A program made the position numbers and the translations under genes. A stretch of 32,000 nucleotides of DNA, from assembly GCA_020846135.1 (NCBI GenBank), contig JADLEK010000014.1, positions 17,719-49,718 of the forward strand, written 5' to 3'. Under the pieces are notes generated by a model, which was given only the letters and a program-made list of their open reading frames with translations, did no database searches and had not been told where the DNA came from. This stretch comes from Gammaproteobacteria bacterium. Its GTDB lineage: Bacteria; Pseudomonadota; Gammaproteobacteria; Competibacterales; Competibacteraceae. Positions 5,231-13,483 of this stretch are shown here, piece by piece (the first letter of the stretch is position 1; each line of letters begins with the position of its first letter).

Positions 5231-6040
5231 TCAGGGATCGTAGCGACCCCGGCAGGCGTTCAACAGAATGGTCAGGACCGCCAGATTGCCTTGGATACTG
5301 CTGATCTTGGTGGGGACTTGGCCGGTAGCGGGGTAGCGACGAGTGGTGGGCAATTCGAGACAGCGATAGCCCAGTTTTGGCGCTCGGTAGGACAGATAGG
5401 CCAGCAGTTCGTAAGTCAAGAAGATGTCCCTGAACGGGGCGACTTTAGGATCGAACAGCAGTTTGCGGCTATACGCTCTGAATCCCTGGGTGGTGTCGGT
5501 CCAGTGAAACCCGGAACAAAAGCTCAGCAATGGCGCATGGACCCAACGAATAGCAAATTCGCGAAATTTCGGCGTGTTTTCGCCAACCCCGCCGGGGATA
5601 TAGCGTGAGGCTTGGACGAAATCCGCGCCGTTTTGCAGGGCGTTGATAAATCGGGGGATGGCGGCGGGATCGTCCTTGTTGTTGCCGTCAATGGTGACAA
5701 TGCCTGCATAGCCCTGTCCAAGGGCGAAGGCATAGGCGCAACGAAGTTGGGCGCTCAGCTTGCCGGGTCCGGTTTTGACCAACAGACCGCGTACACCCTG
5801 AGCTTGAAGTGCAACTGTGTTCAGCGAACCGTCGGTGCTGCCGCCGTCCACAATCAAAATATCCGCCAGATTCTGAATTCCAAGAGTCGCCATTCGGTCG
5901 AGCAGCTTTCCAATCCGCTCGCCTTCGTTAATGACCGGAATGACAATGCACCACGGCTGACCTTGACCTAGCCATAAACGGGTTTCAAAGGCGGGCACTT
6001 GCCAAGTGGCGCGGATTTCCGGGGTTATCTCAGCGTTCAT
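5231..6040 (-). CDS. Family 2 glycosyltransferase, soluble DPM1-like
   Basis: GT2 hallmarks are present: CIVIPVINEGERI, ILIVDGGSTDGS and VTIDGNNKDDPAAIP. There is no C-terminal TM helix. The ATG at 6040 (MNAEITPE) is preferred over the track start at 6079. Confidence 0.8.
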   Translation of the reverse strand: MNAEITPEIRATWQVPAFETRLWLGQGQPWCIVIPVINEGERIGKLLDRMATLGIQNLADILIVDGGSTDGSLNTVALQAQGVRGLLVKTGPGKLSAQLRCAYAFALGQGYAGIVTIDGNNKDDPAAIPRFINALQNGADFVQASRYIPGGVGENTPKFREFAIRWVHAPLLSFCSGFHWTDTTQGFRAYSRKLLFDPKVAPFRDIFLTYELLAYLSYRAPKLGYRCLELPTTRRYPATGQVPTKISSIQGNLAVLTILLNACRGRYDP

Positions 6041-6103
6041 CGTTTTAATCCATATGGATACACAAATAAATTCAACCAAAAAATGGTATAGAAGCCGTAT
6101 CGC

Positions 6104-11303: not shown

Positions 11304-12431
11304 TCAGATTTGGCTTGAAATAACATCATCTTCACTCAGCTTTTCCAAACAATCATAAATATTGTCAATCTTCCCGCCCAGAATCGAATAGCACCCCGGC
11401 AATTCGGGATGCTTTTCAAACAGAATGGGTCGCCCGTCGTCGCCTTCGTTTTTCACCAGCACCGTTTTCACTTCAAACAGCGAATCCACATAGCGGGCAT
11501 CGAGGATGGCGGGCAGATACCGCGCCACATCCCGCACCATCCGATCCACTCGGGTCGCGCACTCATAATTCTCCAATCGCTGATAAGGATCGACGCCCGG
11601 TTGATCCAGCCAATGCAAATGCGGGGTATAGCGGACATGCGAGAGGGTATGTAGCTTGCGGGGCGGAAACGGCATCATCGAGAAAAACGGCCCATCCATG
11701 ACGGTGACGCCCAACCCGGCCAAAGCAGCGGGCGGCTGCATCAACGCCATTTCGGTAATTTCCTGCTTCAGACGAGTCCGGGTGCCAGGGAAATCCCCGC
11801 CGAACTGATTCAATCCGCTGTAGGTGCAATTGAACACAGTACGCGCCGCCAGCGTTTCGCTCGCGCCAGTAGCAACAGGAACGCACTCAACGGCTAACCG
11901 TGGCGGTTCAGCCCGAATGCCGCTGACGTGAGTGCTGAATCGAACGTCAACCCCGGCGCGGTTCAACGCCGCTGCGGCCTGATCCGCCAACACACTGGCG
12001 TCAAAGACGTATTCCTGCGCCAGAAACACCGCCTCAATCAGCCGTGATTCAAACAGTTGGCTGAGTGCCTGGGGCGCGGGTTCGAGCTTGGCCCCAATAT
12101 CGTGGCAAAACCGGATGAATTGCCTGGCGGTGACGTTGGAGTTGCGGCGGGCGATAGCGTAGAGCTTGGTGAAATCCTGCCTTACCGCGTCGGGATAATC
12201 GCGCACAAAGCTGGGCAGGTTGACCCGGCTGCGATAGGCGGTCGTGAAGCTGCGGGGATAGTGATAACCGTTGTGAATCCGGGCCTGATTGTTGTACGAG
12301 GATCGGGTCAGCAATGCCGGTTCCCGTTCCAGCAACGCCACCCGCGAAAATCCGCGCCGGGTCGTCAGCTCACAAGCAATGGCGGTCCCATAAAAGCCGC
12401 CGCCAATAATGATCGCGTCATACAGCGCCAT
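11304..12431 (-). CDS. FAD-dependent oxidoreductase (DAO/GMC-like Rossmann N-terminus)
   Basis: MALYDAIIIGGGFYGTAIACEL...ALLERE is a dinucleotide-binding fingerprint at the extreme N-terminus. Length is 375 aa. Confidence 0.8.
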   Translation of the reverse strand: MALYDAIIIGGGFYGTAIACELTTRRGFSRVALLEREPALLTRSSYNNQARIHNGYHYPRSFTTAYRSRVNLPSFVRDYPDAVRQDFTKLYAIARRNSNVTARQFIRFCHDIGAKLEPAPQALSQLFESRLIEAVFLAQEYVFDASVLADQAAAALNRAGVDVRFSTHVSGIRAEPPRLAVECVPVATGASETLAARTVFNCTYSGLNQFGGDFPGTRTRLKQEITEMALMQPPAALAGLGVTVMDGPFFSMMPFPPRKLHTLSHVRYTPHLHWLDQPGVDPYQRLENYECATRVDRMVRDVARYLPAILDARYVDSLFEVKTVLVKNEGDDGRPILFEKHPELPGCYSILGGKIDNIYDCLEKLSEDDVISSQI

Positions 12432-13483
12432 GCGGTTCCCCCATCAACCGCTATGACGAGCGACCACCGGCGTTGCCGTCGGTGTCGGGGGGGGTGGTGG
12501 GTGACAACCGTATCTTCAATGTTAAGACGCTGCCGACGGGTCATCACCGCACTGGTGAATTCTTGCGCCACATGGTAGGGCGGCCCTTCCTGACTGAGCC
12601 GAGCCATGTGCAGGATATATTCGCTCAGCATCAGTAGCACCAGGGAAAACAGGAAGAACATCCCGGACTGTTGCAGCGACAAGGTGACCCAGCCCGGCGC
12701 GACGTTTTCCTTGGCTATCGCAATGAGGATGACGTAGCCGGAATACACCAGATTAGCGACCGCGCCGAACAGCGACAGTAAAGTCATCAATCGCATCGGC
12801 CCACGAGTCGTGGACACCATCAACCGCATCCCGTGATCAATGCTTTCGCCCAAGCGTTTTTTCCGGTGGGCTTTCGGCGGGGCGCTGTAACTCAGATTGG
12901 CTTTGGAAAAACCAGCGGTAGCCGGTAAATGGCGATAGATCAGCGCCGGAGTCGGATGCTGCAAAATGAAATTCACCACCCGCTTGCTGATGATCCGGTA
13001 AGGCGGCGCTTCCCGCGCCATATCAAGCCCATTGAACCACTGATAAAGCGTTTTGAAGGCCCAAGCGCAACTGCGATAAGCCAGACTCTGCCGGGACTTT
13101 TGCGTGTTCACCGCAAACACCACATCCGCCCCAGAGACCACCTGATCCAGCATGGTCGGCAGAAACTGAAGGTCATCCGTCAGCGGATCGATAACCGCCA
13201 TGAAGTCCCCCAGCGCATTTTCCAAACCGGCCCAAGAGGCGGTATCCGCATCAACCTCCTTGGTCAGCGCATAGATTTGCAGGTTTGGAAAGCCCCGCTC
13301 ACCGGTGAGTTGCTTGAGTACTGCCACGCTGTCGTCATCCGAAGCGTTGTCCACGATGATCAGCTCATAATCACTGACCAAGGACGCGACGGCAGTGGTC
13401 ATTTGTTCAATGATCGCGCGCAATTCATCAGATTGATTACGCACGACCAGCACCACTGATAAAAAAACCGGGAAATAGGTCAT
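12365..13483 (-). CDS. Family 2 glycosyltransferase with C-terminal TM helices (polyprenyl-phosphate glycosyltransferase, ArnC/GtrB/DPM1-like)
   Basis: The N-terminal GT2 domain has SVVLVVRNQS, LIIVDNASDDDS and AVIDPLTDD. Two C-terminal TM helices follow (LMTLLSLFGAVANLVYSGYVILIAI; MFFLFSLVLLMLSEYIL). The RBS is a strong AGAGGAGG. The last roughly 22 codons overlap the FAD gene by 67 nt and look non-native. Confidence 0.8.
   Translation of the reverse strand: MTYFPVFLSVVLVVRNQSDELRAIIEQMTTAVASLVSDYELIIVDNASDDDSVAVLKQLTGERGFPNLQIYALTKEVDADTASWAGLENALGDFMAVIDPLTDDLQFLPTMLDQVVSGADVVFAVNTQKSRQSLAYRSCAWAFKTLYQWFNGLDMAREAPPYRIISKRVVNFILQHPTPALIYRHLPATAGFSKANLSYSAPPKAHRKKRLGESIDHGMRLMVSTTRGPMRLMTLLSLFGAVANLVYSGYVILIAIAKENVAPGWVTLSLQQSGMFFLFSLVLLMLSEYILHMARLSQEGPPYHVAQEFTSAVMTRRQRLNIEDTVVTHHPPRHRRQRRWSLVIAVDGGTAWRCMTRSLLAAAFMGPPLLVS

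Follow-up and report, generated by a model that had tools for sequence, protein, structure and literature searches.

We analysed a window of 32,000 nucleotides (the whole stretch of DNA, to which all positions below refer) from a gammaproteobacterium of the family Competibacteraceae, contig JADLEK010000014.1 of assembly GCA_020846135.1, and describe an operon that encodes a putative glycosylation system of the cell envelope. By exact-sequence look-ups, the window belongs to Candidatus Contendobacter, a genus of this family found in wastewater. Eight genes on the minus strand, from position 13483 down to 5231, share one orientation and are joined by 4-nt overlaps or short gaps. In the order of transcription, they encode a family 2 glycosyltransferase with a membrane hairpin (GT2a), a flavin adenine dinucleotide (FAD) oxidoreductase, a polytopic membrane protein (mem1), a short-chain dehydrogenase/reductase (SDR), a TIM-barrel enzyme (TIM), a small membrane protein of the SMR/EamA type, a second polytopic membrane protein (mem2) and a soluble family 2 glycosyltransferase (GT2b). 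The original prediction, made from the letters of the window, had called positions 5231-13483 an eight-gene operon, and the co-orientation and tight packing of these minus-strand genes bear it out. A ribosome-binding site, GAGGAGG, lies 5 nt ahead of the first ATG (13483); a scan for promoters and terminators gave no more sites than shuffled sequence and did not inform the operon boundaries.

Enzymes of the operon

Both GT2 proteins belong, by homology, to the clade of polyprenyl-phosphate glycosyltransferases, which is also their predicted activity. GT2a (12365..13483) was assigned to the ArnC/GtrB type by profile and PDB alignment: its residues 8-296, including a C-terminal hairpin of two transmembrane (TM) helices that start at approx. 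residues 235 and 266, align with ArnC (9hwj) and GtrB (5ekp) at E values of approx. 1e-13 to 1e-14. Its family retains the canonical DxD motif only poorly (GD-x6-P-x2-D). The GT2a open reading frame (ORF) overlaps the start codon of the FAD gene by 67 nt (12365-12431), and its last ~30 residues are unrelated to the tail of a 93%-identical homologue, which ends ~30 residues earlier, in the closest relative locus (L004); such a tail has the look of non-functional sequence that is read because the stop codon was lost or displaced. GT2b (5231..6040) is soluble and DPMS/AglJ-like, its closest match being the Pyrococcus DPMS (5mlz, E 2.5e-9), and is far better conserved across phyla than GT2a. It carries DGN at the place of the metal-binding DxD of DPMS, GtrB and ArnC, with the Asn kept in at least 90% of 54 homologues. 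The SMR/EamA protein (7727..8080; PF00893/PF00892/PF10639) has 117 residues and four TM helices; its best NCBIfam match is ArnF (1.3e-7, 32 bits against a cut-off of 99), and it is a candidate flippase for a lipid-linked sugar.

The FAD, SDR and TIM proteins all lack TM helices and signal peptides, and they are therefore regarded as enzymes of the cytoplasmic side. The FAD oxidoreductase (11304..12431) is a DAO-family protein (PF01266, E 8e-22), as opposed to the VAO/FAD_binding_4 fold of DprE1, in agreement with the expectation of the original prediction that it would not be a DprE1 homologue. Its best NCBIfam model, at a score far below the cut-off, is L-2-hydroxyglutarate oxidase, and its nearest solved relative is L-alpha-glycerophosphate oxidase (4x9m, profile match, 4e-5); both of these relatives are secondary-alcohol dehydrogenases. 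The family shares a conserved GlpD-like motif, RASYxNQARVHNGYHYPRS, and GlpD/LhgO-type flavoenzymes are typically membrane- and quinone-linked.

The SDR (8916..9719) is an atypical, extended-SDR-like putative reductase with a weak match to PF01370. It possesses a GxxGxxG motif, S88 and an invariant Y113-x3-R117 (numbering of alignment A6), that is, YxxxR in place of the canonical YxxxK, and with ~260 residues it is short for an extended SDR. Its profile finds remote PDB matches to UDP-GlcA 4-epimerase (6zl6), RmlD and GalE over a core of residues 65-147 (E 2.5e-6). These relatives bring in a different explanation of the operon, according to which the three enzymes edit a soluble nucleotide sugar or a free sugar phosphate in the cytoplasm, and the rare sugar is complete before a GT2 attaches it to undecaprenyl phosphate to be flipped and transferred by the GT-C enzyme. 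Besides the exclusively NDP-sugar character of the SDR's structural relatives and its weak Epimerase match in Pfam, the solubility of all three proteins is in its favour, and classical deoxysugar pathways do act on NDP-sugars. However, the SDR matches are remote and confined to the core, the catalytic Lys is an invariant Arg in a protein of reduced length, and the flavoenzyme is of the generally membrane- and quinone-linked GlpD/LhgO type. The original prediction would have been refuted by a clear orthology of the redox enzymes to those acting on nucleotide sugars; no NCBIfam equivalog cut-off for such enzymes was reached by the FAD, SDR or TIM proteins, and their PDB matches are remote.

The TIM protein (8077..8919) is xylose-isomerase-like (PF01261, E 3e-20). 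Its residues E150, D184, H210 and E245 are kept in at least 90% of 61 homologues and form the tetrad with which ketose 3-epimerases bind metal and carry out catalysis (E150/D183/H209/E244 in Agrobacterium psicose 3-epimerase). All NCBIfam matches lie below the cut-offs and comprise the 5-keto-L-gluconate epimerase IolO (7e-11), psicose 3-epimerase and the inosose dehydratase IolE (2e-3). The closest characterised relatives are ketose 3-epimerases (1e-5) and IolO and, weakly, IolE. All of these act alpha to a carbonyl, and an activity of this kind, as epimerase, isomerase or dehydratase, is predicted for the TIM protein too. Its affinity with ketose 3-epimerases and 5-keto-L-gluconate epimerase, together with the kept E-D-H-E tetrad, would suit a further alternative, in which a DprE1/DprE2-like oxidation and reduction is combined with a TIM epimerase and a lipid-linked hexose is only epimerised, with no deoxy sugar being formed. 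Against this, the TIM superfamily includes a dehydratase, the weakly matched IolE, and three enzymes exceed the needs of a simple inversion.

Membrane proteins and their exchange

The mem1 gene (9716..11335; likely start at the ATG at 11329 or 11293) has a GC content of only ~33%. No Pfam or NCBIfam model matched mem1 or mem2, even at E values up to 10, and only four relatives sharing sequence words with mem1 were found among 5.8 billion proteins. An exhaustive HMMER search with mem1 recovered 269 cluster representatives. An alignment of 73 sequences shows a conserved W32-x-D34-E35 in the first loop, as well as E125/K127/Y129/E132, and 5 of the 73 family members match PMT_2. An AlphaFold2 model built from a 5-sequence alignment (pLDDT 58) was superseded by one from the 73-sequence alignment, with pLDDT 96.1 and pTM 0.94. 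As the top 13 PDB matches of this model are all GT-C enzymes (EmbC, ArnT, ALG9, AftA, DPY19, STT3 and ALG3; probability 0.99-1.0), mem1 is, by its predicted structure, a GT-C-fold enzyme. A lipid-carrier logic of the Gtr/Arn type, as originally proposed, is thus supported by the placement of both GT2s in the polyprenyl-phosphate clade, the flippase-like SMR gene and the GT-C fold of mem1.

The mem2 gene (6104..7712, GC ~36%) is frameshifted and is read as two ORFs (7712-6960 and 7069-6104). Its frame is set by a pentanucleotide tract, (CCAGT)x4, at 7044..7063: by copy number, 2, 5 or 8 units would give a protein of 532-542 residues, and the four present lead to a stop after 250. Since 138 relatives, which are single proteins of 505-670 residues, align across 85-97% of the repaired protein, the two ORFs represent one gene, and no lesion other than the tract frameshift was found in it. 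Comparisons with Pfam, PDB sequences and profiles linked mem2 to no fold family. Two homologues are named ‘RgtA/B/C/D-like’ and ‘YfhO family’ by their sources, which are hints only, and one, from Pseudomonas duriflava, is encoded by a solitary gene next to those of an O-antigen ABC transporter. Of the two GT-C genes that had been proposed, mem1 was thus confirmed in its fold by AlphaFold2 and PDB matches; for the split gene mem2, these comparisons showed no GT-C link.

The tract is the sole one with a unit of 4-7 nt and at least four copies in the 32-kb window, and a tract of that kind arises in 2 of 5000 shuffles of the segment. The suggestion that one donor/transferase pair is switchable found no support: a frame-setting tract is present, but the same 4-copy, OFF allele was found in all five independent contigs that were read (L089, L097, L098, L099 and L100, which represent four or more samples), with no copy-number polymorphism among them. 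This count covers those five contigs, besides which 21 others share mostly the same neighbouring genes, and a search of JGI metagenome contigs for flank plus repeat gave 0 matches. Either mem2 carries a recently fixed frameshift, or the switch is OFF in most cells.

Both membrane protein genes lie in low-GC segments. The GC content is ~57-62% in the core genes versus 30-39% at 9471-11340, a replaced segment that holds mem1 and the first 88 codons of the gene for the SDR, and 33-39% at 6045-7733, an insertion relative to the conserved core that carries mem2 and is placed exactly between the SMR and GT2b genes. The closest relative locus, L004, is 88-93% identical in DNA, with only the mem1 and mem2 segments unaligned; it has a different, non-homologous membrane protein in the mem1 slot and no mem2. 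The last dozen residues of the FAD protein differ from those in L004, and the SDR shares 27-57% identity with its L004 counterpart over residues 1-90 and ~97% beyond, which places the N-terminal 90 residues within the imported cassette. The breakpoints fall inside conserved genes, which indicates homologous recombination between modules as the way in which the transferase cassette was exchanged.

A five-gene module in more than ten phyla

Relatives of the FAD protein number more than 7990, with ~72% identity even in Achromobacter, Methylobacter and Burkholderiaceae, where its neighbourhoods carry the same genes. We scanned species-representative genomes with the FAD-protein alignment and searched the six-frame ORFs of the resulting loci with the proteins of the window. 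This revealed 80 loci in more than 10 phyla, distributed over Proteobacteria, Cyanobacteria, Planctomycetota, Verrucomicrobiota, Gemmatimonadota, Acidobacteriota, Myxococcota, Patescibacteria/Saccharibacteria, Actinobacteria, Deinococcota and Chloroflexi, together with one metagenome-assembled genome (MAG) of Methanosarcinales. In the 49 loci that are flanked by 6 kb or more on both sides, GT2a, FAD, SDR, TIM and GT2b are all present in 38, and at least four of the five in 46. The arrangement is far beyond chance. The FAD/SDR/TIM trio is inherited together with the rest and belongs integrally to the system, as opposed to lying next to it by accident; the co-occurrence of the trio with GT2 genes outside this strain, on which the original prediction depended, is thereby established. 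Its notion of two donor/transferase pairs finds no support in the same loci and was rejected, as both GT2s belong to the five-gene core, next to which zero, one or two membrane transferases are found. Literature searches by gene content turned up no paper that describes such a module.

Gene order differs between phyla, and the adjacency of GT2a and FAD is the best conserved. This conserved pairing argues against the editing of a soluble nucleotide sugar, as does the lack of any nucleotidyltransferase or NDP-sugar 4,6-dehydratase-type gene in the core or in a plasmid version described below, and we regard that alternative as unlikely, although it is the most serious of those considered. The SDR gene directly follows FAD in several loci (L007, L008, L010, L011, L014 and L031), so that a membrane gene between the two is optional. 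In a Methanosarcinales MAG, SDR and TIM are fused into one protein of 526 residues (L052, 11008-12588). A small membrane gene was found in the 49 loci as SMR (10), GtrA family (9) or another small ORF with several TM helices (1), with none detected in the other 29; in alphaproteobacterial loci a GtrA-family gene stands in for SMR.

In 59 of 69 loci the module is bordered by polytopic membrane proteins, which represent many unrelated families. Searches with Pfam, NCBIfam, PDB sequences and hhalign assigned none of the following to a known family and connected none of them with another: mem2, a further family designated M, a 452-residue protein from E. coli (see below) and membrane families of 1057, 549 and 455 residues. 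Family M is the commonest of those associated with the module (24 loci, among them L001, L003, L004, L039, L050, L056, L063 and L065; 420-740 residues), and is widespread; its alignment (A5) matched nothing in Pfam, NCBIfam or the PDB, and as a profile it was not detectably similar to mem1 or mem2. Two proteins join GT2b to a PMT_2 (GT-C) domain: one of 839 residues in Cereibacter sphaeroides (L088, 10627-13146) and one of 817 residues in a Rhodospirillales MAG (L023, 7483-9936).

These membrane proteins, several of which belong to families with no demonstrable GT-C relationship, and the 29 loci with no detectable flippase-like gene could be taken to mean that no glycan is decorated at all, the product being an end-product glycolipid, or the genes forming a catabolic or other pathway that merely lies beside membrane proteins. 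Such an explanation appears very improbable in view of the GT-C fold of mem1, the GT2b-GT-C fusions, the position of the E. coli copy inside the O-antigen region between gnd and ugd, and a cassette-like variability that is typical of surface-glycan genes.

The whole module, together with a membrane protein of 479 residues, is the sole cargo (2159-8447) of the 10.8-kb Psychrobacter plasmid pA22P4 (L087, NZ_MN657058.1), which is of a mobilisable type (RepM, MobA/MobC). As the complete module is borne on a plasmid, only housekeeping precursors should be needed for its function. The GT2a gene of pA22P4 (4380-5373) is intact in the DNA and absent from the distributed gene table. No publication was found by the name of this plasmid. 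Megablast of the window's cluster against plasmids gave nothing, and neither did tblastn of the FAD protein against phages, with no sign of a gtr-like prophage vehicle.

The E. coli counterpart and the proposed pathway

The module is present in 6-8 of 5426 complete E. coli genomes. In strain NCTC10973, genes for FAD, GT2a, SDR, TIM, SMR and GT2b and for a 452-residue membrane protein are situated between gnd and ugd, immediately downstream of an O-antigen cluster of the O89/O101/O162 type with wzm/wzt. Full-length BLASTP identities with the window are 41% for FAD, 28% for GT2a, 54% for SDR, 57% for TIM, 72% for SMR and 66% for GT2b. The two loci resemble each other in encoding a FAD protein, a divergent GT2, an SDR ‘epimerase’, a ‘xylose isomerase’ TIM protein, an SMR/EmrE-like protein, a GT2 and a polytopic membrane protein. 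They differ in that the E. coli genes have the order FAD-GT2a-SDR-TIM-SMR-GT2b and a membrane protein of a family other than those of mem1 and mem2, whereas the window has two transferase genes in low-GC cassettes and no adjoining O-antigen cluster.

The E. coli O162 antigen equals O101 plus a side branch of 4-deoxy-D-arabino-hexose, which is the sole difference between them, while 99.8% identity is reported for their rfb clusters (Liu et al. 2020, PMC7685785). The gnd-ugd genes were proposed in the same work to make and transfer this sugar, a role that ‘needs further investigation’ (Liu et al. 2020, FEMS Microbiol Rev, PMC7685785), and the biosynthesis of 4-deoxy-D-arabino-hexose, which occurs in E. 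coli O162 and in Citrobacter O-antigens, was explicitly described as unsolved (PMC7685785). A study of 2026 restates the structural difference between O101 and O162 and assigns no genes to it (PMC13168486), and our search of the literature found no later paper giving a pathway for the sugar. In three of six module-carrying E. coli genomes, an insertion sequence (IS), IS4, lies at the 5' end of the FAD gene, with IS3 nested within it in two; in the IS4-bearing SCPM-O-B strains (L102, 535-1863; L103, 535-3176) the annotated FAD coding sequence is shortened from 371 to 357 residues. The E. coli homologue is a candidate source of the O162 side-branch sugar. The original prediction had left the sugar unnamed, and this can be revised, as the published hypothesis on O162 supplies 4-deoxy-D-arabino-hexose as a concrete candidate (PMC7685785).

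This connection bears on the chemistry. Because the E. coli homologue is proposed to make a 4-deoxy sugar, a sequence of oxidation, dehydration and reduction is likelier than plain epimerisation of the DprE1/DprE2 type. The idea of an oxidation-reduction on the lipid, advanced by analogy with that pair, is therefore retained in part: no clear nucleotide-sugar orthology speaks against it, but plain epimerisation is now less likely than deoxygenation. Epimerisation of a lipid-linked hexose as the only outcome does have lipid-linked precedents in DprE1/DprE2 and in the ORF13 SDR of Citrobacter youngae (PMC11127046); we nevertheless consider it improbable, the sole phenotype correlated with a homologous locus being a 4-deoxy sugar (PMC7685785). 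Both the periplasmic, post-polymerisation side-branching of O-polysaccharides made by ABC transporters and the editing of an undecaprenyl-phosphate-linked sugar by an auxiliary SDR are precedented (PMC11127046), and a side branch on an ABC-exported O-polysaccharide therefore fits periplasmic addition after polymerisation.

Several characterised systems share parts of this scheme. The GtrA/GtrB/GtrC, ArnC/ArnE-F/ArnT and CsbB/GtcA/YfhO systems, like the window, combine a polyprenyl-phosphate GT2, a small candidate flippase with four TM helices and a GT-C transferase, the transferases being variable, but have neither the trio of flavoenzyme, TIM and SDR nor a second GT2. In the case of Arn, ArnA and ArnB modify the sugar while it is still a UDP-sugar, and only the deformylation by ArnD takes place on the lipid. 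Membership of the operon in that pathway was rejected on the basis of scores (56.7 bits against a cut-off of 529 for ArnC, 32 against 99 for ArnF, and a score likewise far below the equivalog cut-off for ArnE) and of the absence of ArnA, ArnB and ArnD homologues from the cluster. The mycobacterial decaprenyl-phospho-arabinose pathway (UbiA/Rv3806c, DprE1, DprE2, Rv3789 and AftA/Emb) follows the same logic of oxidation by a flavoenzyme, reduction by an SDR and use by GT-C enzymes, and a small protein of the GtrA/SMR type is encoded in both cases. The folds are different (VAO/FAD_binding_4 in DprE1 and DAO in the window; a classical SDR in DprE2 and an extended-like one in the window), and the window has a GT2 in place of the phosphoribosyl pyrophosphate-dependent UbiA for making the donor, an extra TIM step and a predicted hexose instead of a pentofuranose. 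Homology to DprE1/DprE2 was rejected, with the FAD protein being PF01266 DAO and the SDR only weakly PF01370/extended; the window system would thus be a non-homologous analogue of the DprE1/DprE2 idea.

A precedent for the dehydration exists in myo-inositol catabolism, in which IolG oxidises a ring hydroxyl to a ketone and IolE, a xylose-isomerase-like TIM barrel, dehydrates the product to a deoxy-diketone. That pathway differs in acting on a soluble cyclitol and in its NAD-dependent Gfo/Idh/MocA dehydrogenase, and the similarity of the TIM protein to IolE is weak (E 2e-3). The pentofuranose side-chain system of Citrobacter youngae O1/O2 resembles the present proposal in the periplasmic side-branching by a GT-C enzyme from a sugar on undecaprenyl phosphate and in a donor-changing SDR; it differs in its UbiA-type phosphoribose synthase, MATE flippase, GT136 GT-C enzyme and single GalE-like SDR, with no flavoenzyme and no TIM protein (Kelly et al. 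2024, PMC11127046).

Taken together, the operon is best explained, with a probability of roughly 0.55, as a periplasmic glycosylation system of the three-component type in which the donor sugar is oxidised, dehydrated or epimerised, and reduced, probably while it is carried by undecaprenyl phosphate. It is part of this explanation, and to be held with the same confidence, that the genes for donor synthesis are conserved and that the transferase genes are exchangeable low-GC cassettes which set the acceptor specificity. We infer that it is the lipid-linked sugar itself that is edited. A polyprenyl-phosphate-type GT2 would load a common hexose on undecaprenyl phosphate at the cytoplasmic face, as its homology to ArnC, GtrB and DPMS suggests. 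The GlpD/LhgO-like flavoenzyme would then oxidise a ring hydroxyl to a ketone, presumably at C-2, from which the 4-hydroxyl can leave by beta-elimination. The metal-dependent TIM barrel, acting alpha to the carbonyl, would remove the beta-hydroxyl as water in the manner of IolE and/or epimerise the adjacent centre, and the SDR would reduce the intermediate with NAD(P)H, possibly together with reduced flavin, resetting C-2 and C-3 to arabino. Judged by the analogous O162 locus of E. coli, the product would be a 4-deoxy-hexose such as 4-deoxy-D-arabino-hexose. The SMR protein may flip the lipid-linked sugar, and mem1, the GT-C fold of which is seen in its model, would transfer it to an envelope glycan in the periplasm, with donor and acceptor predicted from the gene set; mem2 would be a second transferase for another acceptor or linkage, at present inactivated by the frameshift.

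A more specific form of this proposal is offered tentatively, as we hold it possible but would not yet favour it: the FAD, TIM and SDR proteins may carry out deoxysugar synthesis directly on polyprenyl phosphate, from undecaprenyl-phosphate-hexose to undecaprenyl-phosphate-4-deoxy-hexose, and so bypass nucleotide-sugar dehydratases, in a mobile five-gene module with plug-in GT-C cassettes that choose the acceptor.

Several observations weigh against the favoured explanation. We infer the chemistry of every step. The only detectable structural relatives of the SDR are nucleotide-sugar epimerases and reductases, which keeps editing at the level of NDP-sugars in contention, at the lower probability given above. 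The model does not account for the need for two GT2s, the DxD motif of GT2a is degenerate, with the E. coli GT2a barely recognisable as a GT2, and GT2b has DGN for DxD; GT2a may serve the soluble enzymes as a scaffold. Only 20 of the 49 loci yielded a small flippase-like gene, and mem2, family M and the 452-residue E. coli protein could not be assigned to GT-C. For E. coli, the assignment is a hypothesis from the literature that has a single natural IS disruption as its basis, and with FAD and GT2a of the window only 41% and 28% identical to those of E. coli, the product may differ. Finally, the operon in the window sits between genes of a TRAP transporter and of a YadH-type ABC transporter, and not beside an O-antigen cluster.

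The TRAP genes (dctPQM, 1884-4900) lie between the operon and a gene at 32-1759, approx. 3.5 kb downstream of the operon, for a protein of 575 residues with a C-terminal, ElyC-related DUF218 domain. ElyC is an envelope biogenesis factor of E. coli tied to undecaprenyl-phosphate-dependent envelope synthesis. On the other side, the genes for a YadH-type ABC-2 permease (13575-14348) and a DrrA-like ATPase (16106-17026) are parted by mobile DNA, namely an IS1595-family transposase gene (14434-15387) and an ORF of 144 residues (15473-15907), which is PIN-like by eye from its sequence and has no NCBIfam match. An ABC-transporter operon directly upstream of the glycosylation operon thus appears to have been split. 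Further on, an ApbE flavin-transferase gene (17042-18238) is divergent from two adjacent, paralogous CoA-transferase family III genes (18212-20741; 427 and 435 residues), which are unrelated to the operon.

These results turn a one-line remark on six E. coli genes into a defined module that spans many phyla. They also have practical relevance: multidrug-resistant lineages of O101/O162 E. coli are emerging in bloodstream infections and are targets for vaccines (PMC13168486). If editing on the lipid is true, the DprE1/DprE2 principle would be extended from mycobacterial pentofuranoses to hexoses and to deoxygenation, with unrelated enzymes, and it would be shown that surface glycans can be diversified by pairing a portable set of donor-making genes with GT-C transferases that are exchangeable. 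If the deoxysugar is indeed made on the lipid, the module would represent a new route to deoxy sugars in more than 10 bacterial phyla, including Patescibacteria.

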